Below are positions 19,201 through 41,993 of a stretch of DNA of 48,646 bases, piece by piece. The notes beneath the pieces were generated by a model, which was not told the DNA's origin, searched no databases, and worked only from the letters and a program-made list of their open reading frames with translations. A program made the translations under genes and the position numbers. Position 1 is the first letter of the stretch. Each line of letters opens with the position of its first letter. The DNA comes from a phage: sequence record NC_136441.1; one strand, given 5' to 3'.

Positions 19201-19994
19201 ACCAGAAACTTGATTCTTGGGTTAATGCCGATAGCGTAGGCGCGATGTACGGCGTTAAGTTGGGGTTACGTTACAACGGGCAGGAATATAGCGCGGGTAT
19301 GGCTCTTTCCCTTGTTGGTGACGGATCAGGAGTTAAATCACAATTCCTGTTTGATGCTGGACGATTTGCGATCATAAACAACCAACAGAGCGGAGGTTTT
19401 ACACTACCGTTTGTTGTTGAGAATAATCAGGTGTTTATCAACAGCTTACTTGTGAAAAATGGCTCTATTGGTAACGCTCAGATTGCGGATCAGATTAACT
19501 CTAACAACTGGAGCAGCGGCGCGGCTGGATGGATGATTAATAAGAATGGTTATGCTGAATTTAACCAGATAACGGTAAGGGGTACAGTGTACGCAAACGC
19601 CGGATCATTCACTGGTAACGTTTACGCTACTGATGGTTGGTTTAGGGGTACTGTTTACGCTGAAAAAATCGAGGGCGACGTTGCAAAGGCTGTTGTGCTT
19701 GGGTTTAACGGATCGGTTCACATTCCGGCAGTAAACTACAACAGACACCTTGTGATCCCTTATGTTGGTATTCACGGGTACACATATTCAGGTGGTACAT
19801 GGGGCGGCGGTACTGTTTGGGTTGATTCAACATATGGCGGTCGCCTTGCTAACGTTCAGGCAACTGCAATGCATGGCGGATCAAGTGGTTATGTTCTGTT
19901 GCCAGCGGGTAACGCAACTACGCTTTCATATGGTGGAAATCTAAACCACGCAAACGCAGTACCGATCTTAACAGTTCTGCTATTCAAAGCATAA
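16218..19994 (+). CDS. central tail fiber / host specificity protein (lambda gpJ-like)
   Basis: 1258 aa; N-terminus MIKNMITGSKGGSSKPHTP matches gpJ-type start; follows M-L-K-I. Confidence 0.85.
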   Translation: MIKNMITGSKGGSSKPHTPVEMEDNLISINRIRILLAVSDGEVDPDFSLKDLYFDDVPVMNQDGSLNFQNVKAEFRPGTQTQDYIQGFTDTASEITVARDLTAATPYIISVTNKNLSAIRIKILMPRGVTQEDNGDLTGVRVEYAVDMAVDGAEYKEVLHDVIEGKTMSGYDRSRRIDLPAFNERVLLRVRRLTDSTSARVTDLIKMQSYAEVVDAKFRYPLTGLVYVEFDSELFPNALPNISIKKKWKIINVPSNYDPISRTYSGSWDGTWKKAWSNNPAFVLYDLITNQRYGLDQRELGIALDKWSIYECAQYCDQMVPDGKGGTEPRYLCDVVIQSQVEAYQLVRDICSIFRGMSFWNGESLSIVIDKPRDASYIFTNDNVVNGEFTYTFASEKSMYTQCNVTFDDEQNMYQQDVEGVFETEAALRFGYNSTSITAIGCTRRSEANRRGRWILKTNVKSTTVNFATGLEGMIPTVGDVIVVSDNFWSSALTLNLSGRLMEVNGLQVFTPFKVDARAGDRILVNKPDGKPVGRTIARVSDDGKTLTLNTTFGFDVHPDTIFAIERTDIAQQRYVVTGITKGDGDEEFTYNITAVEYDPNKYDEIDYGVNIDDRPTSIVQPDILPAPQNVKIESYSRVVQGASVETMHVSWDKVEYASLYEMQWRKDNGNWNNTPRTANKETEVEGIYAGNYHVRVRSVAANGSASGWSAIVSAGLTGKVGEPERPINLTASDNEVFGIRVKWGMPEGSGDTAYIELHQAPNGADGHPIVDEATLLTLVPFPQYEYWHSILPAGHVVWYKARAVDKIGNVSDWTDFVRGMASDDTSIITDHIKVDIENSDGYKWLQENAIKANDKIHSTAESVIENALANDKDVRRMRVENGKRKAEFLQSLKLIADETEARVTQVTQMSAQFDEKLTAQNSELREVIANSTETISQRIDQLTATFESEIYGVKQDIKAQITDVNQAITNEAEARASADRALSTQIGDTQSAVNQKLDSWVNADSVGAMYGVKLGLRYNGQEYSAGMALSLVGDGSGVKSQFLFDAGRFAIINNQQSGGFTLPFVVENNQVFINSLLVKNGSIGNAQIADQINSNNWSSGAAGWMINKNGYAEFNQITVRGTVYANAGSFTGNVYATDGWFRGTVYAEKIEGDVAKAVVLGFNGSVHIPAVNYNRHLVIPYVGIHGYTYSGGTWGGGTVWVDSTYGGRLANVQATAMHGGSSGYVLLPAGNATTLSYGGNLNHANAVPILTVLLFKA

Positions 19995-20008
19995 AAGGAG
20001 GTAAATCA

Positions 20009-20080
20009 ATGCCCTGGCTTAACGGTCTGGGCATTTTGTTTTCTTTTGTTCTACGGTGTTCACAACTTAATCCGGCGTAA
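20009..20080 (+). CDS. hypothetical 23-aa hydrophobic peptide
   Basis: ATG 20009 preceded by near-perfect SD AAGGAGG at 7-nt spacing immediately after J; MPWLNGLGILFSFVLRCSQLNPA. Confidence 0.3.
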   Translation: MPWLNGLGILFSFVLRCSQLNPA

Positions 20081-20113
20081 ATAATAAACGTTTGCACAAC
20101 AAAAAGAACAAAT

Positions 20114-20164
20114 AAAATATCTATATAATACATACACTTAAAGAATAATTATTATTATATATCT
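20114..20164 (+). repeat. AT-rich conserved element, copy A (AAAATATCTATATAATACAT-N11-ATAATTATTATTATATATCT)
   Basis: identical arms to copy B at 40917..40967 (same 51-bp length); embedded in a 325-bp non-coding AT-rich region. Confidence 0.8.
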
Positions 20165-20397
20165 CTATTTGTATTCTTATTGTTTCTATTGTTCTCTATG
20201 GTTTGGTGTGGTTGTGTGTTTTGGATTGGTTAATGGTTATATATCTCATGGTATATATTTATATATGGTATCCGGCGCAAATGCGTGAACAATGGAACAC
20301 TAAAACAACAATCAATATAATCATAAACTTACGATGTGATTTTGTTGTCAGTTCCTACTTTGAACGTATGTAAAACAAAAAGAACACATAAAGGCTA

Positions 20398-20425
20398 TTG
20401 ACTACATGAAACATTCGCATATAAT
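20398..20425 (+). promoter_or_regulatory. strong sigma70-like promoter for the recombination operon
   Basis: TTGACT-N16-TATAAT about 30 nt upstream of SD/ATG at 20454. Confidence 0.6.
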
Positions 20426-20453: not shown

Positions 20454-21509
20454 ATGAGCGATTTTAAAGTTTACACCTTTGACCAGTTAACCAACGATGA
20501 ATATCACGATCCGAAAGGCTGGGCGGCTGAATACGTTAGCGGTTCAAGCCTGGCAGAAATCTTTGCAACTTGTCCGGCTGCATGGAAGTACAAGCCACGC
20601 GAAGAAACAAAGGCGCTTACTTTCGGTACGCAGTCACACACAAACTTCCAGAGTAGTGAGCTATTCGCAAAAGAGTACCGCAGAGCGCCAGCGCCGGAAG
20701 ATTATGAAAACCTGATTACAAGCCAGGCAGCATTGGCAGCGAAATTAAAATCTTTTGGCCTGACTGGTACAAGCGGGAAAACGTATCCAGATCTGATTAA
20801 GATGATGGTTGATTGTGGTGAGGATCTTAATGTTCAGTGGCTGATTGAAATGATCGCAGAGAGCCAAGCGCGATCTGATAACGTTGAATTGGTTCCGGCT
20901 AAAGATTACGACGCTTGCGTTACCATGCGCCGCGTACTGGAAAACATACCGGAACACAACGCTTGCATGAATAGCCCAACAGCACAACGCGAGCTATCAA
21001 TTTTCGGCACTATCAAAGGCGTGAAAGTCAAAGTAAGGATTGACCATGTTGATATTTGCAAGGATGTGCTTGCAACAGTGATTTCCGGCTATGATGGTGA
21101 TGGTAATCCTGTATATAAAACAACGCGATTTGATGAAGCGATTGTGATCACGGATTATAAAACAACGTCAAGCGCTAACCCGTCAGAGTTTGCAAGGCTG
21201 GCATTCAATCACGGATACTACTTGAAAATGGCATTGCAGCATGACCTATTCAAGAAAGCGTATCCAGAAGAAACGCGCCCCGTAGTAGTCAGATTGCTGG
21301 CGCAGGAAAAGAAAGAGCCTTATTTACCGATTGCATACCGCATGACGGATGAACAATTGAAGATCGGACGGCTTCAATACATGAGTGTGATAAACCAGTT
21401 TGCAGAATGCCAGGCAAATGACAGTTGGCCTTCATACGCAAACGGAGAGCCTGAAATTGATCTTCAAACGCCTGATTGGGTACGCAGACAATACAAAGGT
21501 TTTTTATAA
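20454..21509 (+). CDS. PD-(D/E)XK-family nuclease (recombination exonuclease candidate)
   Basis: 351 aa from ATG 20454 (SD GAGAGGA); VRIDHVD ... VITDYKTT resembles a D...(D/E)XK core; first gene of operon with Erf and SSB; ORF-track start 20406 lies inside the promoter. Confidence 0.5.
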   Translation: MSDFKVYTFDQLTNDEYHDPKGWAAEYVSGSSLAEIFATCPAAWKYKPREETKALTFGTQSHTNFQSSELFAKEYRRAPAPEDYENLITSQAALAAKLKSFGLTGTSGKTYPDLIKMMVDCGEDLNVQWLIEMIAESQARSDNVELVPAKDYDACVTMRRVLENIPEHNACMNSPTAQRELSIFGTIKGVKVKVRIDHVDICKDVLATVISGYDGDGNPVYKTTRFDEAIVITDYKTTSSANPSEFARLAFNHGYYLKMALQHDLFKKAYPEETRPVVVRLLAQEKKEPYLPIAYRMTDEQLKIGRLQYMSVINQFAECQANDSWPSYANGEPEIDLQTPDWVRRQYKGFL

Positions 21510-21552
21510 ATAGCACTTTTTGCTAAAACAGCCATTCGATGCGTGGTATACT
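21510..21552 (+). promoter_or_regulatory. motif promoter (ATAGCACTTTTTGCTAAAAC + 21 nt + TATACT)
   Basis: conserved motif begins right after upstream stop; hairpin GATGCGTG/CACGCATC encloses the -10; upstream of gene 21585. Confidence 0.5.
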
Positions 21553-25417: not shown

Positions 25418-26344
25418 TTATAATAAGTCACTTGCCTTGTAAAGCATCCGCTCTATTCCATTTTTGAATTTTCCGTTAATTGGTAACATAACGTCTAATT
25501 CCCTTTCATCGGCTGCAATAATAGTTTCCTTGTCATCCTTATGGCAAACAACGCGCATTTTGCGATCTCCTTTGTACCTGTATGCTACAATTTCAAGATT
25601 TGATGCAGAGAAACAAGCCCATACTTCTTGTCCCGTCGCTAGGTGGATATGTTGCGCATCAATCCAATCAACGCAAAGATAGATCGTCTTATCAGTCTTG
25701 CCAGTTACTGCAACAGAGCCTCGCGTATAATCCTTAGCGTAAAAACTGCTTTGACCTTCCTCATTGACGAAAAGAATATTACACATATCATCGTCCAATT
25801 CATCACTATGCACTAGGTGGCAAGGAATGGCGTGAATATGTTCGCAGTATCCGTTGTCGTGAGTTTTTACGCCAACTTGATATGATTCACCATCTAACGG
25901 ATAAAACGCCTCAAAAACGCTTAGATTTGTTATTTCCATGCTTTCGGTTTTGCTCATAACATCAACGCATTTTTCGTGTGGCGCTTGAGATCCGAAACTA
26001 TAACCAGAATCACGCTTTGCCGCTTTGTTAGCCTTGTTGACAACCTCAACCGGAACCAGGTTTAACCATTCTCCTAGCGTGTCGATTGCTTCACTGTAAT
26101 TTTCACCACGGATACGCATGAATAATCCGATCCCTGAATCATTTCCGCACTGGTTGCAGATGTTCCCGCCGTCGCCTTTCTCGTTGATTTTATCAGTCCA
26201 GCGAAAGCGATCCTTACCTCCGCAATAAGGGCAAGGTTGATGTTTGCCGTTGAATGTTAATTGAGGAATATCACAAAGTTTCATCAATGCCGCTTGCCAC
26301 ATTCCGCGCATCTTTGGGATCACTTCTTCTTTCTGGTAATGCAT
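25418..26344 (-). CDS. DNA primase (P4-type zinc-ribbon N-terminus)
   Basis: 308 aa; CPYCGGKDRFRW...CNQCGN zinc ribbon; SD GGAGG; between tail fiber and helicase region. Confidence 0.5.
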   Translation of the reverse strand: MHYQKEEVIPKMRGMWQAALMKLCDIPQLTFNGKHQPCPYCGGKDRFRWTDKINEKGDGGNICNQCGNDSGIGLFMRIRGENYSEAIDTLGEWLNLVPVEVVNKANKAAKRDSGYSFGSQAPHEKCVDVMSKTESMEITNLSVFEAFYPLDGESYQVGVKTHDNGYCEHIHAIPCHLVHSDELDDDMCNILFVNEEGQSSFYAKDYTRGSVAVTGKTDKTIYLCVDWIDAQHIHLATGQEVWACFSASNLEIVAYRYKGDRKMRVVCHKDDKETIIAADERELDVMLPINGKFKNGIERMLYKASDLL

Positions 26345-26375: not shown

Positions 26376-26420
26376 ATGATAAACCATGCCAGGCTATAAT
26401 TTTTAGCAATCAGTGCTATC
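26376..26420 (-). promoter_or_regulatory. motif promoter (ATAGCACTGATTGCTAA + 22 nt + TATCAT) upstream of primase
   Basis: motif overlaps last codons/stop of HTH gene; -10 sits in loop of hairpin 26366..26394, which is followed by a T-run (also terminator-like). Confidence 0.45.
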
Positions 26421-27011
26421 CATAGTGATGACAACTTTCTTTTTCTGATTGGCTTCCTTTGCTTTCCTGCGTTCTTCTTTCGCCTTGTCTCGTTCAGCCT
26501 TGCGCCGCGCTTTCTCCTTCTCGCGTTCTTCTGGTGGCATTGACCGCAACGGATCGTAAGGCCGCACAAATCCGCGCGCCTCCGCTTCTTCTTTTGTGAC
26601 AAATCGCATGAGCTTTCTGTTGCTGCAACGATTCTCTAATGGCTTGCCGTTGTTGTCAAAGCGCAAATCTGGACGGCAATATGAAGCGCGGAAGCCGTTA
26701 AAACCTTTGCGGCGGTAATCCTTTTGGATCAGTTCAGCGCCTTTAGCTGAAATCATGCCGCGCTCTTTCCATCCCCACACTGTTTTAAGGTTAACGCCAA
26801 TCTCACGCGCCAACGCAGCACAGCCGCCATAAGCGCTAACCACCTCATCAAGCCTCGCTTTTAATCCTGCCCTTACTTCTTCCTTTAGTACCAGATAACC
26901 GCTAACAGGTGCGCGGCGCTTCCGGTCTTTACCACGCCTTACGCCGTTGTTACCATTGATTGTGCGTTTGTCGATTTCGCCCGTTGAGGCCGCAATTTTG
27001 ATTTCGCTCAT
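26403..27011 (-). CDS. helix-turn-helix DNA-binding protein (candidate transcription regulator)
   Basis: 202 aa; HTH-like GGCAALAREIGVNLKTVWGW; highly basic Lys/Arg/Glu C-terminal tail; SD AGGTGA. Confidence 0.5.
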   Translation of the reverse strand: MSEIKIAASTGEIDKRTINGNNGVRRGKDRKRRAPVSGYLVLKEEVRAGLKARLDEVVSAYGGCAALAREIGVNLKTVWGWKERGMISAKGAELIQKDYRRKGFNGFRASYCRPDLRFDNNGKPLENRCSNRKLMRFVTKEEAEARGFVRPYDPLRSMPPEEREKEKARRKAERDKAKEERRKAKEANQKKKVVITMDSTDC

Positions 27012-27021
27012 ATTTTCACCT

Positions 27022-27064
27022 ATAGCACTTTTTGCTAAAAAACTTGATTAAGTTTGTGTATGAT
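27022..27064 (+). promoter_or_regulatory. motif promoter (ATAGCACTTTTTGCTAAAAA + 21 nt + TATGAT) upstream of helicase
   Basis: motif, -10-like hexamer, hairpin ATGCC/GGCAT, then SD AAAGGA and ATG 27100. Confidence 0.5.
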
Positions 27065-27088
27065 ATGCCGCAAATGGCATTTAGTCAA
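27060..27088 (-). promoter_or_regulatory. sigma70-like promoter for HTH gene, overlapping the divergent helicase promoter
   Basis: minus strand TTGACT-N17-TATCAT; leader contains the reverse complement of the conserved motif. Confidence 0.45.
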
Positions 27089-27099
27089 AAGGATAAAAA

Positions 27100-29073
27100 A
27101 TGATTCCTAACATTGAAAAGCAGATTGCAGATCTTGGAGAGGAAAGGATTAAGGCAATCCAGAAGCGTTTCACGGTTGGTGAGATTGTCCCGTATGAATA
27201 CCAATGCGTTGCTTACGCTGAAATTGCAAAGCGCTTGAGTAAGTATGTTGATCCGTTTTTCGTTAAAGCGGCGGTGTCGGCAGGTAAAACAATCATCTTT
27301 GCTATGGTTGCGGCTCAGTGCAGGAAAATGGGATTGAAAGCGTTATTTCTGGCGCGTCAATCTGAAATTGTGGATCAGGATTCAAAAGAGATTAGCGCCT
27401 TTGGTGTTCCGAATTCCGTTTATTGCGCTGGCCTGAATACCAAAAGCGCTTATTTCCCGATTGTTGTAGGATCGGAAGGTACTGTAATTGGCGGATTGAA
27501 TAAGGCGTTAGGTGATTACGTCCCACAGGTTTTAGGTATAGATGAATGTCATCAAGTCAACTGGAATGACATTGTTGAAGCCGAGGAAAACGGAGAAAGC
27601 ATAGAGCAGATGATGACGCCGAAAGGTGAACCAGTTGAAGGCAATCCGTTGCTGATTGGTTCAGGCCGCGCACAATACACCATTATCATTGCAGAAATGC
27701 GCCGCCGTTGTCTTGAGACTTACGGTCATCAGTTGCGTATATTTGGAATGACCGGATCGGAATATCGCGGAATTGAGCCGATACTTGTCGAAGATAAAAG
27801 AATTCCTGGGTTTTGGCGTGAGCAGATCACAAACATTGATACTGATTACCTGGTAAAATTTGGTTCAGTTGTTCCCACTTATTTTGGCAATGTTGGTGAT
27901 TTGGGTTACGACTTATCAGAATTTACGCCAGTGAATGAATTTGGCGTTGCTGATTATGACCAGAAGCAATTAAAGGCCATGAGTGACAAGATTCACCAAT
28001 CAGGAACCATGACGCAGAAAATAATGCAGATGGTTCACGAGGTGATGAAAAACCGCTTGTGCGCTCTTGTTACTTGCGCTGACGAAAGGCACTGCAAAGA
28101 GGCAGCGGCGGCGCTTCCGTCTGGCACGAAATATCACATTATTACCGGAAAAACTGGAGAGAAACAGCGGCGCTTATGGCTTGAGGATGCATATGAAGGG
28201 CGCGTTAAATACATCTTCCAGGTTCAGGCGCTAACAACTGGCGTTAACGTTCCGCCGTGGGATACTTCTGTGATTTTGCGTAAGATCGGAAGCCTGACGC
28301 TATTAACTCAGCTTTTGGGGCGTGGTATGCGTCAATTAAAAACATACCATAAAGAAGTATTGGGAATGCACAAAACAGATCACCTTGTTTTAGATTTTTC
28401 CGGCACGATGTTTGAAATGGGTAATTTGTATTTCGATCCTATGCTTGAGCAAGCGCAATTCCAGTTGCGTAAATCGCAGGATAAAGATCCGAAATTTTGC
28501 CCGATTTGCGGAACGGAAAATTCATTCTATGCGCGGCGTTGCATTAATGAAGATGAAAACGGAAATCGTTGTGAGCACTTTTGGACGTTTCAAACGTGTG
28601 AGGATCAGATTGATGGCCGCACAAAGAAAATAACGGTAAAAGGTTGTGGTGCTAAAAATGACGTTGCGGCGCGTGTATGCCGTTGCTGTAATGTTCAGTT
28701 ACGTGATCCAAATGATAATTTATCCGGCAAGATGTACCGCAAAAATGATTGGTGCGACGTGTTAGATTTTAATGTGACGCTGACAAAAAACCAGGCTGGC
28801 GTAATATTCTGCTACACGTTGCGCGATAGTGGCGGCGTAGAATTCAGGGCATACGAAAAATATTTCCCTGAATCAGAACACAAGATATGCAAAACGCTTT
28901 GGACAAAGGCTGTTAGAACACACGTTATAGATCGCCAGGCTGCAAACTATATGATAACTTGCCGCAACGCAATTAAGATCATGAGTTATGCGGGGCAAAT
29001 ATTGCCACCGAAGCGCGTTACGCATCGCAAGAACACAAAGAAAGAAGATTTAATAGCACAGAAGGAATTTTAA
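27100..29073 (+). CDS. SF2 DEAD/DEAH-box-type helicase with C-terminal Cys-rich zinc-finger region
   Basis: 657 aa; Walker A AVSAGKT, DEAH-like GIDECHQ, several CxxC pairs near C-terminus. Confidence 0.8.
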   Translation: MIPNIEKQIADLGEERIKAIQKRFTVGEIVPYEYQCVAYAEIAKRLSKYVDPFFVKAAVSAGKTIIFAMVAAQCRKMGLKALFLARQSEIVDQDSKEISAFGVPNSVYCAGLNTKSAYFPIVVGSEGTVIGGLNKALGDYVPQVLGIDECHQVNWNDIVEAEENGESIEQMMTPKGEPVEGNPLLIGSGRAQYTIIIAEMRRRCLETYGHQLRIFGMTGSEYRGIEPILVEDKRIPGFWREQITNIDTDYLVKFGSVVPTYFGNVGDLGYDLSEFTPVNEFGVADYDQKQLKAMSDKIHQSGTMTQKIMQMVHEVMKNRLCALVTCADERHCKEAAAALPSGTKYHIITGKTGEKQRRLWLEDAYEGRVKYIFQVQALTTGVNVPPWDTSVILRKIGSLTLLTQLLGRGMRQLKTYHKEVLGMHKTDHLVLDFSGTMFEMGNLYFDPMLEQAQFQLRKSQDKDPKFCPICGTENSFYARRCINEDENGNRCEHFWTFQTCEDQIDGRTKKITVKGCGAKNDVAARVCRCCNVQLRDPNDNLSGKMYRKNDWCDVLDFNVTLTKNQAGVIFCYTLRDSGGVEFRAYEKYFPESEHKICKTLWTKAVRTHVIDRQAANYMITCRNAIKIMSYAGQILPPKRVTHRKNTKKEDLIAQKEF

Positions 29074-29833: not shown

Positions 29834-30574
29834 ATGGCTAAGGATTTTCAGGACAAAGCAACCATTGATACTTTTGAGCCGGAAATGGATTTTCATGAAC
29901 TGCAACACGGCAGATATTCAGATATTGCGTTGCGTTCAGGTGGTCATTATCAGCCAGTTAGAGAAAACCCAATGTTCAAGGTTAGCGGCAACCGTTATGC
30001 AGGAAGTAAAACGCCGGACGTTGTGCGCGACTTGTGGGAAACTCCAGATGAAATTGTTGAATACCTTGCTGAACGTTACGGCAAATATGATCTTGATGCA
30101 GCCGCAAGCGAAAACAACAAAAAATGCGATAAGTTTTATAGCAAAGAGACAAACTGCTTAAAGCGTTGGTGGGGTAGCAATAAGCACGTTTGGTTAAATC
30201 CACCATACAGCAATCCAGATCCATTTATCAAAAAAGCAATTGAGCAGATGGAACACGGAAACCAGATTGATATTTTACTTCCGGCTGATAATTCAACTGC
30301 ATGGTTTAGTGACGCACAAAAACACGCGGCAGAAATTATCTGGATTACTGGTGAAACCTGGAAGGATGAAGAAGGTCGCGAATATTCCCGAACTGGTCGA
30401 GTGGCGTTTATTTCTGGCATGACAGGTGAGCCAGTTAGCGGAAACAATAAAGGTAGTGTAATTTTTATCATGCGCCAATTGGAAGAAGGTGAGCAACAGC
30501 AAACACACTATGTGAAGATTAGCGACATTTGCCCTTCCGTAAAAAATAAACGAGCCAAAGCGCGGAGTATTTAA
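29834..30574 (+). CDS. dam: DNA N6-adenine methyltransferase (phage Dam-type)
   Basis: 246 aa; catalytic NPPY motif (WLNPPYS) and DLDAAAS region typical of phage N6-adenine MTases. Confidence 0.75.
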   Translation: MAKDFQDKATIDTFEPEMDFHELQHGRYSDIALRSGGHYQPVRENPMFKVSGNRYAGSKTPDVVRDLWETPDEIVEYLAERYGKYDLDAAASENNKKCDKFYSKETNCLKRWWGSNKHVWLNPPYSNPDPFIKKAIEQMEHGNQIDILLPADNSTAWFSDAQKHAAEIIWITGETWKDEEGREYSRTGRVAFISGMTGEPVSGNNKGSVIFIMRQLEEGEQQQTHYVKISDICPSVKNKRAKARSI

Positions 30575-34222: not shown

Positions 34223-35803
34223 TTACCCCATTAACGCCGGATTTACATAAACAAATTTACCAACGCTGCAAACATAATTCTTTTCTTCAAGCATTGGCAA
34301 TAATTGTTCCTCAATTCGTTTCATCACGCCTGATTGACCTGTAAACGGCTTAACCTTACGCGCACTTTCATAGATAGCTCTTGCATTGGTAACGCCTTTA
34401 TTTTGACGTGAGATCTTAATGATGATTTCAATTAACTTGCTCATTTCGGCATCATCGCCAGCGTGACCGGAAGCATTCGCGGCGTTGATATATGTTTTGC
34501 TTAATTCGCTGAACATTACCAAAGCCTCTTGCATTGTCTCAACTTCAATTTCTCGCGACTTTTGCGGCGTACCGTTTGGATTAAACCAATTGCGGATCGT
34601 GTGCAATACTGACGCAATGCGGATCACTTGTTTATCCATTTTACCCAAAGCACCACGCAACATTGTATGTGAATATTTTCCGCCGTCTGCTAAATCCGGC
34701 TCTAATTGCTGGCGAGCAATATTAAGAACACGCATTGCAGAACGTGACGGCTTCAATACAACATTTTGCTCAGTCATGATGTTATGAATCAACTGGAAAT
34801 ATTGCGCCTTTAATTCTTTATCAACTGGCGTGTAATCAAGATCACCATTTTCATCAATAAATACACGCTCGCCTAACATTGTTTTTTCACGTACAAGCAA
34901 GAAACGTTCACTAACACCGATACCCCGCGCCCCTGCATCCATGATCCCTTTTATCGTTTCATCCTGGGCAATTACGCTCATGCAGCCCAACGCAACAAAA
35001 CTCATATTGTTTTCAGAGTTGGCGCGAGCTATTGAAACGTGTCCGGCGTCCCATGCTTTTAGAACCAATTCGCTGTTAGTCTTGCGATCACTATTAGCGT
35101 AAGTCAATCCGAGTAAGCTGTTGATGCTTGTTGCTTCATCGGAAATGACAGCAAAGTTACCCTGGCGATTGTTGATCTTTGCTAACCCTTCCGGCGTGGT
35201 GTCTGATACCGGAAAAACGATATCGCACATTTTTTCTAACTTTTCCTCTAATTCCTCCTTTTCCTCAAACAACGCCGCTAACTCAGTGCCTGAACGTTCA
35301 GCTTTCAATTCCTTTTCAACGCCTTTTAATTTCGCTGAGATCTTCTTTCGCTCTTTCTTGCGTTGTTCGTTGATTCGCTCAACTTCACAGACCATTGGCG
35401 CAATAGCCAGGCTGTTGATTGCTGATTTACCAGTTGATGGCGGCTGACTGGTTACAACATAAAGCGCCGTTGGTTGTTCAGTGCCGTGGTACTCAACTTG
35501 GAAGCGTCCAACCATAGCGGCGGAAACGCAACCTATGAAATGCATATAGGCCGATGATTCAGGAAATTGAACAGATTGCGCAATGCTACGTGACAGTTTA
35601 CCCACAACATCAACATCATTACCCAAAGAGATCACAGGATAACGGTCATTAGCGCCGTTGATATCCTTCACAGGTTCCCAAAAGCTGGATGATTGGCGGT
35701 AGCCGTTAGACTGAATAGCAACGCGAAGCGGCGATGTTCCCTGCGATTCTGCAATGGCTATAACTTGTTGAGGTGTCAATTTGTTGGTGTCAAAGTCAAA
35801 CAT
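34223..35803 (-). CDS. P-loop NTPase with coiled-coil insertion (possible replication/helicase-like protein)
   Basis: 526 aa; Walker A SQPPSTGKS, Walker B AVISDEAT, Lys/Glu-rich coiled coil between them; own motif promoter; SD AAGGAGA. Confidence 0.55.
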   Translation of the reverse strand: MFDFDTNKLTPQQVIAIAESQGTSPLRVAIQSNGYRQSSSFWEPVKDINGANDRYPVISLGNDVDVVGKLSRSIAQSVQFPESSAYMHFIGCVSAAMVGRFQVEYHGTEQPTALYVVTSQPPSTGKSAINSLAIAPMVCEVERINEQRKKERKKISAKLKGVEKELKAERSGTELAALFEEKEELEEKLEKMCDIVFPVSDTTPEGLAKINNRQGNFAVISDEATSINSLLGLTYANSDRKTNSELVLKAWDAGHVSIARANSENNMSFVALGCMSVIAQDETIKGIMDAGARGIGVSERFLLVREKTMLGERVFIDENGDLDYTPVDKELKAQYFQLIHNIMTEQNVVLKPSRSAMRVLNIARQQLEPDLADGGKYSHTMLRGALGKMDKQVIRIASVLHTIRNWFNPNGTPQKSREIEVETMQEALVMFSELSKTYINAANASGHAGDDAEMSKLIEIIIKISRQNKGVTNARAIYESARKVKPFTGQSGVMKRIEEQLLPMLEEKNYVCSVGKFVYVNPALMG

Positions 35804-40554: not shown

Positions 40555-40599
40555 AATGTAGCGCATTCGTTTTGATTGGTTTTAACAAAAAGTGCTATT
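40555..40599 (-). promoter_or_regulatory. motif promoter (ATAGCACTTTTTGTTAAAAC + 22 nt + TACATT)
   Basis: minus strand, first promoter of the leftward early block. Confidence 0.5.
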
Positions 40600-40607
40600 C
40601 ATGCAGT

Positions 40608-40635
40608 AGACCGATTGGTCTAGACCGTTTGGTCT
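40608..40635. repeat. two tandem 14-bp near-palindromes AGACCGATTGGTCT / AGACCGTTTGGTCT
   Basis: direct reading; operator- or iteron-like. Confidence 0.8.
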
Positions 40636-40775
40636 AATGAACGCATCGTTCAACGTATCGAACGCATTCACGATCACGTTATACGATCACAATATGATCA
40701 TGTTGATGATTGATGTGTGAGTTGATGTGATTGAAATTGATTTGATTTGATTAGATTTGAGTAGTGAGTGAGTAG
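40636..40775. repeat. iteron-like cluster of short direct repeats (GAACGCAT x2, ACGATCAC x2, GATTGA/GATTTGA series, GTGAG x2)
   Basis: direct reading of non-coding control region. Confidence 0.7.
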
Positions 40776-40916
40776 AAATAATCACACCTTGCCGATCTCG
40801 TGAAAACTTTTCTCGCAAAACATCACTCCAGGCTACGAATGTTTCGTTTTGTTCCTCGCTGTTCCCAGCCCGACCTTCCGCAGTTTAGCGCAACGTTACA
40901 CAACACGTATAACAAC

Positions 40917-40967
40917 AAAATATCTATATAATACATTGAAAAGTAAGATAATTATTATTATATATCT
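40917..40967 (+). repeat. AT-rich conserved element, copy B
   Basis: same two 20-bp arms and 11-bp spacer length as copy A at 20114..20164. Confidence 0.8.
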
Positions 40968-41188
40968 ATATTGTTATATAACTTGTTTTGCTTGTTTCTC
41001 ATGATATTGATACCCCTTTACTGATTGATAGAGTATAAAATTATAAGATAGGTGCTCTTATTTATTATAGGTGGCGGTGATTTTTAGCGAAATGGTATAA
41101 CGATTTAGAACATAGTTGATTTGAAAGGATAAATTTGCAATTACTGTTACATTGCGTGATGTTTTTGTTGCCTAATCAAAAATAACAC

Positions 41189-41216
41189 TTGACGCATAAG
41201 CCAGGCTTGCTAAGAT
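41189..41216 (+). promoter_or_regulatory. sigma70-like promoter for rightward early block
   Basis: TTGACG-N16-TAAGAT about 35 nt upstream of SD GGAGG and ATG 41251. Confidence 0.5.
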
Positions 41217-41250: not shown

Positions 41251-41538
41251 ATGGTAAGGGGCAAAATCGTAAAGCGTGACCTATCCATAGTTGATGCAAC
41301 GCCAGAAGATGCAACCAAAGATATCATGCGCCTAATGTACATAGCACGGATATTGGGGGCTGCAAAACCAAACAGGCTGTATTACATCGACATTAAGGCA
41401 TCCGGTCGCGACGTTAATTCATTGCGCCAGGCAATAAACACGATTGCGAAAGAGGATCGCAGAACCATTAAGACAATAACCACTGATAACGGCTATATCG
41501 GCTTTGTTATCATCGACGTTAAAGAAGCGTTTGTGTAA
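41251..41538 (+). CDS. hypothetical early protein
   Basis: 95 aa, SD GGAGGA. Confidence 0.5.
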   Translation: MVRGKIVKRDLSIVDATPEDATKDIMRLMYIARILGAAKPNRLYYIDIKASGRDVNSLRQAINTIAKEDRRTIKTITTDNGYIGFVIIDVKEAFV

Positions 41539-41549
41539 AGAGGTGAATC

Positions 41550-41993
41550 ATGGAACAAATGACAAGTAAAGAGTTTTGCGAAAAATTGCGTGAAGCAGCA
41601 AGAGCGGCGGCAAAAGGTGAGGTGATCAAGTTGCCAGTTGCCTACATAACAATGAACGTCCAGGCAGAGGACGCAAAGAAGCTAAATTCCTCATACATTC
41701 GCACGATCATGAATCGTGTTCCAGAAGTAAAAGAGGTTGGATCTGTAAGCGTAAAGAAAAAGACAAGCGATGACGGCGCGGAATATTACGAGATCGCAAT
41801 CAACCGTGACACAAAGCGCCGCATCGTAACAACTAATGACCTTCCGGCAATCAAAGAGCATGAGCGCGAAAAACTGGTCGAAAAGATTATGCGTATATCG
41901 CCGGACTTCTCACACCTGGACGATGAAAAGGCACTTGTTGCAATGCGAGCGGTTGCCACGTTCAAAGATCTGATTAAGGAGATCTCAAAGTGA
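41550..41993 (+). CDS. hypothetical early protein
   Basis: 147 aa, SD AGAGGTGA. Confidence 0.5.
   Translation: MEQMTSKEFCEKLREAARAAAKGEVIKLPVAYITMNVQAEDAKKLNSSYIRTIMNRVPEVKEVGSVSVKKKTSDDGAEYYEIAINRDTKRRIVTTNDLPAIKEHEREKLVEKIMRISPDFSHLDDEKALVAMRAVATFKDLIKEISK

Follow-up and report, generated by a model that had tools for sequence, protein, structure and literature searches.

Paired AT-rich modules with helically phased flanking repeats as candidate replication origins of a T1-like phage

What is the role of two similar AT-rich elements of 51 bp that lie 20.8 kb apart in long non-coding regions of one phage genome? The question was raised by a first-pass annotation of sequence record NC_136441.1, which took the pair for a protein-binding or structural DNA element. 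The window, meaning the whole stretch of 48,646 bp that was analysed, is the complete genome of a T1-like siphovirus (Drexlerviridae, genus Tlsvirus). Its sequence opens at the terminase genes, and the regions tested were 92–95% identical to phages of Citrobacter, Escherichia and Salmonella, among them Supreme284, Stevie, Sazh and Tls. Our analysis showed that the pair is a real, conserved and apparently undescribed cis element. As read from the sequence, its most likely function is the initiation of phage DNA replication, either as twin origins or as one origin with a second site required in cis.

The pair was verified on the whole window. AAAATATCTATATAATACAT was found only at 20114–20133 and 40917–40936, ATAATTATTATTATATATCT only at 20145–20164 and 40948–40967, and no third match to either 20-mer was found on either strand at up to three mismatches. 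The expectation from shuffled sequences was 0.01 matches, and two matches were reached in none of 100 shuffles. Both copies lie on the + strand with an equal gap of 11 bp, 42 of the 51 positions are identical, and the AT content is 88% against 57% for the genome. The claim of exact twin elements of the same length and direct orientation was confirmed with its coordinates, and chance is excluded by the shuffles. Local alignment of the two regions scored 47 (shuffles 11.4 ± 1.9, maximum 19), and the similarity reached about 77 bp upstream of the 51-mers (score 17, shuffles 7.9 ± 1.3); downstream of them, local alignment against shuffles gave no significant similarity between the copies. The similar preceding sequence that had been described was recovered as TTGCACAAC at 20092–20100 and TTACACAAC at 40896–40904, with an offset of 1 nt relative to the core. 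That the copies occupy the two largest non-coding regions is borne out by the curated annotation of Stevie, in which the homologous gaps are the two largest (461 and 783 bp); positions 20008–20046 of the first region are the terminator of the tail operon.

We found that each 51-mer forms the core of a larger unit, a paralogous module about 157 bp long, at 20037–20193 and 40840–40996. Its parts and the terminator are the following.

20037 to 20060, + strand: upstream TGTT repeats of site 1, at 20037, 20047 and 20057; the third unit reads GGTGTTCACAAC
20070 to 20082 and 20087 to 20116, + strand: box ATCCGGCGTAAAT and A-rich block AACGTTTGCACAACAAAAAGAACAAATAAA of site 1, from the repeat search (D1, D6) and the family alignment
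20114 to 20164, + strand: core copy 1, with TATAAT at 20124–20129
20170 to 20193, + strand: downstream TGT of site 1, at 20170, 20181 and 20190; TTTCTATTGTTCT repeats the unit at 20040–20052 (D5)
40840 to 40863, + strand: upstream TGTT repeats of site 2, at 40840, 40850 and 40860
40884 to 40916, + strand: AACGTT / CACAAC / AACAACAAA block of site 2, paralogue of 20081–20113 in the upstream alignment
40917 to 40967, + strand: core copy 2, with TATAAT at 40927–40932
40972 to 40996, + strand: downstream TGTT of site 2, at 40972, 40984 and 40993
20008 to 20046, + strand: intrinsic terminator of the tail (J) operon, a hairpin at 20008–20035 followed by a U-run

The order of the module is three TGTT at an exact spacing of 10 bp, a CCGGCG/CCGCAG box, an AACGTT...CACAAC...AAAAAGAACAA block, the AT-rich core, and three TGT(T) with a spacing of 9–12 bp in both copies. 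Counted from TATAAT, which stands at the start of the core, the TGT offsets were −87/−77/−67 and +46/+57/+66 in copy 1, and −87/−77/−67 and +45/+57/+66 in copy 2. No other TGT occurs between the upstream and downstream triplets in either copy, and the third upstream TGTT lies 57 bp before the core at both sites. After the downstream repeats of site 1, a G/T-rich tract free of C runs to about 20240 (GC skew +0.22). A 35-nt imperfect inverted repeat (40899–40933 / 40956–40990, I1) is centred on core 2.

The terminator of the J operon folds at −14.4 kcal/mol (z = −3.4); it is T50 of TLS Table S1 and is also annotated in Stevie, and its U-run overlaps the first TGTT units of site 1. A mini open reading frame (ORF) of 23 aa at 20011–20080, with an ATG and a perfect AAGGAGG Shine-Dalgarno sequence, is probably no gene, since it consists of this hairpin and the TGTT repeats.

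We then scanned duplex stability by the nearest-neighbour method over lengths of 40, 60, 100 and 200 bp. The cores were the two least stable stretches of the genome (z = 4.5–5.2, next-best stretch ≤3.5), with z = 4.5–5.0 for core 1, and core 2 was the least stable 40- and 60-bp stretch genome-wide. The homologous positions also ranked 1 and 2 in T1 and Stevie (z = 4.9–5.8, third ≤3.75).

Is the module a property of this genome or of the family? Relatives were taken from several hundred IMG/VR loci anchored on RecE, TerS, the DUF3987 helicase and the primase, and from the GenBank records of T1, Stevie and P4. An AT-rich core (84–94% AT) was present 327–405 bp upstream of recE in 56 of 60 loci. 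In the lineages sampled, a second core was found in the divergent early region, 7.7–9.8 kb upstream of terS and 3.4–5.2 kb from the helicase gene. T1 carries both cores (30010–30069 and 214–273), and all T1-like lineages examined have the module at both positions. The alignment with relatives that had been proposed as a check was thus favourable, position and orientation being kept in all relatives examined. When 23 non-Tunavirus modules from both sites and several genera were aligned, the columns conserved in at least 90% of them read GTT-N7-tGTTc.C, TAtaAtA, TTa..TaTaTat and TGTT-N5-TGTT.

The distances within the module vary in regular steps. We measured them in 56 distinct modules with GTT-N7-GTT, which are phylogenetically related and represent few independent events, not 56. 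The distance from the repeats to the TATAAT-like box clustered at 55–56, 64–67, 76–78 and 85–87 bp, and that from the core to the downstream TGT pair at 35–38, 45–48 and 56–58 bp. The spacer lengths thus cluster at steps of about 10 bp, and indels come in whole helical turns. These steps and the exact 10-bp phasing of the repeats are the hallmarks that support a protein-binding or structural element instead of chance. The picture of two arms around a free spacer did not hold: the 11-bp spacer is conserved among orthologous copies (e.g., CTTAGAGTTT at Tlsvirus site 1) and differs only between paralogues, and the unit is about 157 bp long.

The words of the flanking repeats change with the lineage. 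They read TGTTC in Tempevirinae and others and TGTAAC/TGTCTA in Tunavirus; further forms are TTGTCCC/GGGACAA and CAGTTCAC. A distant clade, whose primase is 33% identical, uses TTGCCCAC, TTATCCC, GTTCCC/GGGAAC and CCCACG. It has kept the AT core and the iterons, has no TATAAT, and carries the core directly upstream of a P-loop helicase gene, which has been exchanged together with the repeat words. Three loci of this kind (L232, L246 and L248, at about 11.2–13.5 kb in each locus) encode at the same conserved position mutually unalignable P-loop proteins of 523, 496 and 551 aa, of which a single one is recognisable as DUF3987. The L232 protein is 57% identical to the DUF3987 helicase of the window, and those of L246 and L248 are unrelated by BLASTP and keep a Walker-A-like motif. 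These swaps look like non-orthologous helicase replacement coupled to a change of iterons.

The near-identity of the arms described at first is not a general feature. Identical arms were found in one sublineage only (the window, LL5, CF1, SP-126 and a metagenomic contig). Another site 2 core is present in Tls, Stevie and Sazh, and the longest exact match between their own two sites is 14 nt. Alignment scores of site 1 against site 2 were 27–55 within a genome or clade and 12–28 across clades, and in contig 2974594196 site 1 was closer to its own site 2 (score 33) than to any orthologous site 1 (≤27). These scores indicate that the two copies co-evolve within lineages, that is, by concerted evolution.

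Recombination alone could make two copies alike, and the pair might then be a gene-conversion tract or a mosaic junction with no dedicated function. Site 2 is indeed mosaic among close relatives: homology with genomes of the Stevie/Tls/Sazh type stops at about 40830–40843, which is the left edge of the site 2 module and the edge of a mosaic cassette. The restriction of exactly identical arms to one sublineage and the presence of RecE and Erf in the phage point the same way. However, both sites and the motif order are kept across subfamilies although the modules are only about 70% alike, and the spacing is quantised by helical phase. Moreover, neutral direct repeats 20.8 kb apart would promote lethal deletions and should be lost. 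We consider such a relic quite improbable.

Which process would require a conserved, easily melted element at two positions? The genes of the window are arranged as follows.

Up to 19994, + strand: structural genes, the last being the tail-tip gene J, which ends at 19994
20454 to 21509: recE, followed by erf and ssb
25418 to 26344 and 26403 to 27011, − strand: Zn-ribbon primase and helix-turn-helix (HTH) protein of 202 aa, in a leftward block with the tail fibre
Rightward block: SNF2-type helicase, VRR-NUC, dam and lysis genes
34223 to 35803, − strand: DUF3987 helicase (526 aa), in the leftward early block
From 41251: rightward early block, beyond a gap of 726 bp

The gene set includes the DUF3987 helicase, the Zn-ribbon primase (PF08273), RecE, Erf and SSB, and no polymerase is encoded. 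DUF3987 proteins count as MCM-like replicative helicases that have a winged helix-turn-helix (wHTH) at the C-terminus (PMC4889955); the 526-aa protein had no sequence match in the PDB.

We ranked a replication origin first because the module joins an unwinding element, phased repeats on both sides, whole-turn indels, lineage-specific words and co-evolution of the copies. Added to this are the neighbouring replication and recombination genes, and the fact that the phage must recruit the host polymerase via its own helicase and primase. Two marks of iteron-type origins are present, namely an AT-rich element of low stability and helically phased short repeats, the latter much shorter than classical iterons. 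The explanation that we favour, at somewhat less than even confidence, is that of twin unwinding modules of the origin type, which transcription possibly activates. The fuller version, in which the twin modules are the unmapped origins of T1-like phages, the phased TGT on both sides of the core of about 50 bp load the DUF3987 helicase, and the modules are maybe an obligate pair in the manner of P4 ori and crr, we put forward more tentatively.

The course of initiation would be as follows. A phage protein would contact one face of the DNA by binding the helically phased TGT(T) repeats that flank the core at either end. The binding would stress or bend the core of about 50 bp with 88% AT, which may then melt, so that the MCM-like DUF3987 helicase and the Zn-ribbon primase could be loaded and the host replisome recruited. 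TATAAT, which stands at the core's upstream edge, may contribute activation by transcription or a priming R-loop, in the manner of T4 oriF and oriG. Later, replication would switch to concatemer synthesis dependent on RecE and Erf. If this is true, both copies must be read by one fast-evolving phage factor, and concerted evolution would keep them matched for that reason.

In the accessible literature, we found no described origin of T1 or other Drexlerviridae, no AT-rich pair, and no origin mapping or transcriptome. The 2024 reannotation of TLS reports no origin-type repeats; it gives 20 terminators, three sigma-70 promoters (P01, P51 = recE, and P57) and eighteen 21-nt direct repeats, and the AT-rich pair is neither mentioned there nor included in its Table S1 (PMC11447400). 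No origin was found in SU57 either (2020; PMC7718038).

Several observations weigh against an origin. The near-invariant TATAAT, the fixed orientation and the A-rich block shared with sigma-70 promoters fit a promoter equally well, and class-I activator sites typically show helical quantisation as well. No perfect IHF consensus exists in the two copies of the window, and the suggestion of a host-factor site there is to that extent not supported. No DnaA box was recognised in these copies by eye, no scan having been made; GGTGTTCACA, again by inspection only, is two mismatches from a DnaA box. A-tract phasing (9–12 bp periodicity), by which the proposed curvature check was made, is unremarkable at both sites. 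GC skew follows the direction of transcription across the genome and gives no origin signal. As for the T-rich periodic DNA said to follow both copies, the TGT phasing stands at both, but the TTGT periodicity is a genome-wide outlier (rank 1) at site 1 only and not at site 2; likewise, the hexamer TTGTTC is about ten-fold enriched at site 1 and not at site 2.

The first of these points leads to the promoter question. Two promoters lie downstream of the modules.

20398 to 20425, + strand: sigma-70 promoter of recE, consensus TTGACT-16-TATAAT, the same as P51 of TLS Table S1; 274 bp downstream of the TATAAT of core 1
41189 to 41216, + strand: sigma-70-like promoter of the rightward early operon, TTGACG-16-TAAGAT, with the A-rich AATCAAAAATAACAC in front; 262 bp downstream of the TATAAT of core 2

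The module itself could be an activator-dependent or otherwise unusual promoter or regulatory region, with TATAAT as a −10 box that has no −35. The TGTT triplet at −67 to −87 would hold a phage activator, the downstream TGT would be an operator or roadblock, and the whole would give the recE-erf-ssb and rightward early operons a second promoter, timed and placed upstream of their constitutive sigma-70 promoters. TATAAT occurs in 89 of 127 distinct modules, with close variants in 32 more, and the module is always oriented towards the downstream operon, with no terminator predicted between module and gene. At site 1, ATCCGGCGTAAAT and AACGTTTGCACAACAAAAAGAACAAATAAA both recur about 200–276 bp downstream, and TATAAT(A/G)CA(T/G)ACA together with the A-rich block recurs 276–296 bp downstream at the recE promoter (D1, D4). 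The A-rich copies AAACAAAAAGAACAC (20363–20392) and AATCAAAAATAACAC (41174–41188) abut the −35 of the recE and the rightward early promoter, respectively, and a further copy lies 7 bp upstream of the TATAAT of core 1; the block could be an UP-like element or the site of a shared factor. The spacing quantised at 10 bp matches the geometry of class-I activation. Since only three sigma-70 promoters are recognisable in TLS, non-canonical promoters must exist.

However, no conserved −35 was found at 16–18 bp: the best match was 2–3/6 in 100 of 121 modules and 1–3/6 in 111 of 121. There is no TG extension before the −10 box. In a consensus scan, site 1 gave no more than a match of 9/12 that is displaced from the box, and the site 2 core gave none. 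The variants TATAAC and TATATA(C) change the critical last T, and the distant clade has the AT core and iterons without TATAAT. Stretches of 50–100 bp with 85–95% AT, the least stable DNA in three genomes, are far beyond the needs of a promoter. Besides, the module has two copies per genome, against 21 for the real repeated promoter-like element of the phage (the 21-nt direct repeat), and each operon already has a strong promoter 262–274 bp downstream. An activator-dependent promoter or regulatory region is the main rival of the origin and only somewhat less likely, and the two accounts are not mutually exclusive.

If the modules are origins, which protein would read the repeats? The candidates are the DUF3987 helicase with its wHTH, the 202-aa HTH protein and the DUF7174 early protein, and an objection was met for each. 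In T1 and the clades with 65% identity, the words of site 2 differ among phages with identical helicase C-termini, which speaks against the C-terminal wHTH as the reader in these clades. The 202-aa HTH protein has no TGTT-type repeats in its own promoter region (27011–27100). For the first early gene (DUF7174/ST77-like), site 1 is constant in T1-like phages that differ in their site 2 flanks. This gene is co-swapped with the outer site 2 repeats, as seen in locus L171 (3896–5016) against L172, which has a 65%-identical helicase. Because site 1 is unchanged where the site 2 flanks differ, the outer repeats of site 2 are probably operators of the early promoter and not part of the shared module. 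The swapped first early genes encode about 180–190 aa, and DUF7174 is represented by ST77 in T1 and by 41550–41993 in the window. An extra ORF of 95 aa at 41251–41538 precedes the DUF7174 gene in the window; it has no family match.

The extreme AT content of the cores would also suit an architectural or nucleoid-protein site of the host (IHF, Fis, H-NS or HU), which, as bent and readily deformable DNA, would serve genome organisation, aid packaging from the pac close by or modulate promoters from afar. A perfect IHF consensus (WATCAANNNNTTR, + strand) was found in 20 of 121 modules compared with 2.6% of shuffled cores, 4–25 nt (mostly 4 or 13–17 nt) downstream of the TATAAT-like box, and the distance from copy 2 to the pac-like repeats is about 200 bp. 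In the window, however, the IHF matches are three with a single mismatch, placed around copy 2 on the opposite strand, and copy 1 has none. The ordinary A-tract phasing at both sites and the lack of pac-like repeats at site 1 are further difficulties, and sites for host factors would not be expected to vary their flanking words by phage lineage under the same host. We regard this explanation as improbable.

A small non-coding RNA gene or a structured leader transcribed from TATAAT was also considered. Across genera, conservation of the whole 325 bp upstream of recE is recognisable (about 68%), and complementary stretches, ATACCCCC...GGGGGTAT, occur downstream of the core in some lineages. But Rfam gave no match at the gathering threshold, the predicted folds of the putative transcripts did not stand out from those of shuffles (z = −1.1 and −0.9), the copies show no significant similarity in their downstream parts, and an RNA from the module would be U-rich and unstructured. 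Such an RNA is very improbable. The ATACCCC/GGGGTAT complementarity was rejected as its sign, being limited to some lineages and absent from the window.

These stretches are worth recording in their own right. In the site 2 modules of L074, L108, L112 and L088, ATACCCCC...GGGGGTAT lies about 60–150 nt downstream of the core. The lengths of the C-run and the G-run roughly match between lineages; the pattern is absent at site 1 of the window and weak at site 2. This suggests a hairpin or cruciform.

Finally, could the pair be a packaging signal? The region left of copy 2 contains the following feature.

40670 to 40780, no strand: GATC-rich tandem and GATGTGATTG-type repeats, the probable pac region

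The records of T1, Tls, LL5 and other phages begin in the intergenic region that contains copy 2; near the pac region, the starts correspond to 40726 for MBBL140, 40785 for GS71 and 40888 for LL5. However, a pac signal is a single site and the element has two copies per genome. Coordinate 1 of T1 aligns at about 40709, roughly 208 bp left of copy 2 and inside GATGTGATTG repeats that are absent at copy 1. The packaging signal suggested earlier is therefore disfavoured, and a chance low-complexity match is excluded by the 20-mer matching and the alignment shuffles; taken together, these two are the least credible explanations of all.

Within 40670–40780, tandem ACGATCAC(G/A)(T/A)TAT units hold three of the five GATC sites of 40.5–41.3 kb and are followed by the GATGTGATTG/GATTTGATT repeats. 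The T1-like region was also found in sixteen records named 'Campylobacter phage' (e.g., MG065643) and in 'Streptococcus phage MBBL140' (OR786094), the latter being 95% identical to the Tlsvirus of the window. The host labels are probably wrong, or the records contaminants.

T1 belongs to the classical set of seven T phages. Drexlerviridae are ubiquitous contaminants of laboratories and fermentations as well as candidates for phage therapy. The start of T1 replication now becomes testable: two sites of about 157 bp are defined, their geometry makes separate predictions for insertions of 5 bp and of 10 bp, and candidate binders are at hand. As origins, the modules would reveal the way in which an MCM-like DUF3987 helicase is directed to its target in bacteria, and they would offer cis elements for T1-based replicons or for blocking T1 contamination. 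If they are activator-dependent promoters, they would be the first non-canonical promoter class defined for the family.

How does the module compare with known elements? Like the 21-nt direct repeat of TLS (aaATAGCACnnnTTGnTAAAA; PMC11447400), it is a repeated intergenic element oriented with transcription. The 21-nt repeat is different in sequence, has 21 copies in the window, and lies each time just upstream of a gene; no match to aaATAGCACnnnTTGnTAAAA was found within 20037–20193 or 40840–40996, the nearest being at 40581–40598 on the − strand. Searched as ATAGCACnnnTTGnTAAA, this repeat has 21 sites in 6313–46568 against 0.67 expected, for example at 40581–40598 (−), 21510–21527 (+) and 27022–27039 (+), and nearly all copies are oriented with the downstream genes, the exceptions being 6313 and 25265. 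Just right of the leftward early copy, two tandem 14-bp units, TAGACCGATTGGTC / TAGACCGTTTGGTC, at 40607–40634 make up an overlapping palindrome that looks like an operator.

The closest precedents are found in SPP1 and P4. In Bacillus phage SPP1, the origins oriL and oriR combine protein-binding boxes with an AT-rich region. SPP1 is likewise a virulent pac-type siphovirus with two dispersed origin-type elements, and it has an exonuclease/annealase/SSB gene set with a switch to recombination-dependent concatemer synthesis, both shared with our reading of the window (PMC3485210). There is no sequence similarity between the two systems. The G38P binder and the origin activity of SPP1 are experimentally established, and those of the present module are predicted; oriL lies inside gene 38, whereas both copies here are intergenic; and the SPP1 helicase is of the DnaB type, unlike the MCM-like DUF3987 helicase.

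The satellite phage P4 also uses two cis-acting sites kilobases apart, ori and crr. In its GenBank record, TGTTCACC repeats at 10–11 bp phasing flank an AT-rich stretch, which is the arrangement of short phased repeats seen here. The unit GGTGTTCACAAC of the window matches the alpha type I iteron TGTTCACC at 7 of 8 positions, a resemblance that may be coincidental, and the phage primase has the same Zn-ribbon family (PF08273) as the primase-helicases. On the other hand, site 1 has a single TGTTCAC and site 2, which reads TGTTCCC, has none; across the family, the repeat is reduced to a core of TGT(T). The window has no alpha-like multidomain protein; its primase and helicase are separate, and the helicase is DUF3987. 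P4 crr, of which the first 120-bp repeat was read, is not known to be paired with a strongly AT-rich core.

Iteron origins (pSC101, R6K gamma and lambda ori) share with the module the phased direct repeats beside an AT-rich unwinding region and, in some lineages, an IHF consensus inside the AT-rich part. They differ in that their iterons are 17–22 bp long, against 4–8 conserved bases here, and in that the repeats of the module flank its core at either end. The window has no gene recognisable as a Rep or O-type initiator.

The origins oriF (uvsY) and oriG (gene 34) of T4 consist of a promoter and a downstream unwinding element and are primed by an R-loop. The module differs from them in having phased flanking repeats, of which T4 has none, and in being without a MotA box or an activator box of known type. 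It resembles them in the −10-type box at the upstream edge of an easily unwound stretch of about 50 bp, in the several sites per genome, in one site upstream of recombination genes and in the later recombination-dependent replication. The excess of G over C on the non-template strand downstream of site 1 would likewise favour an RNA-DNA hybrid.

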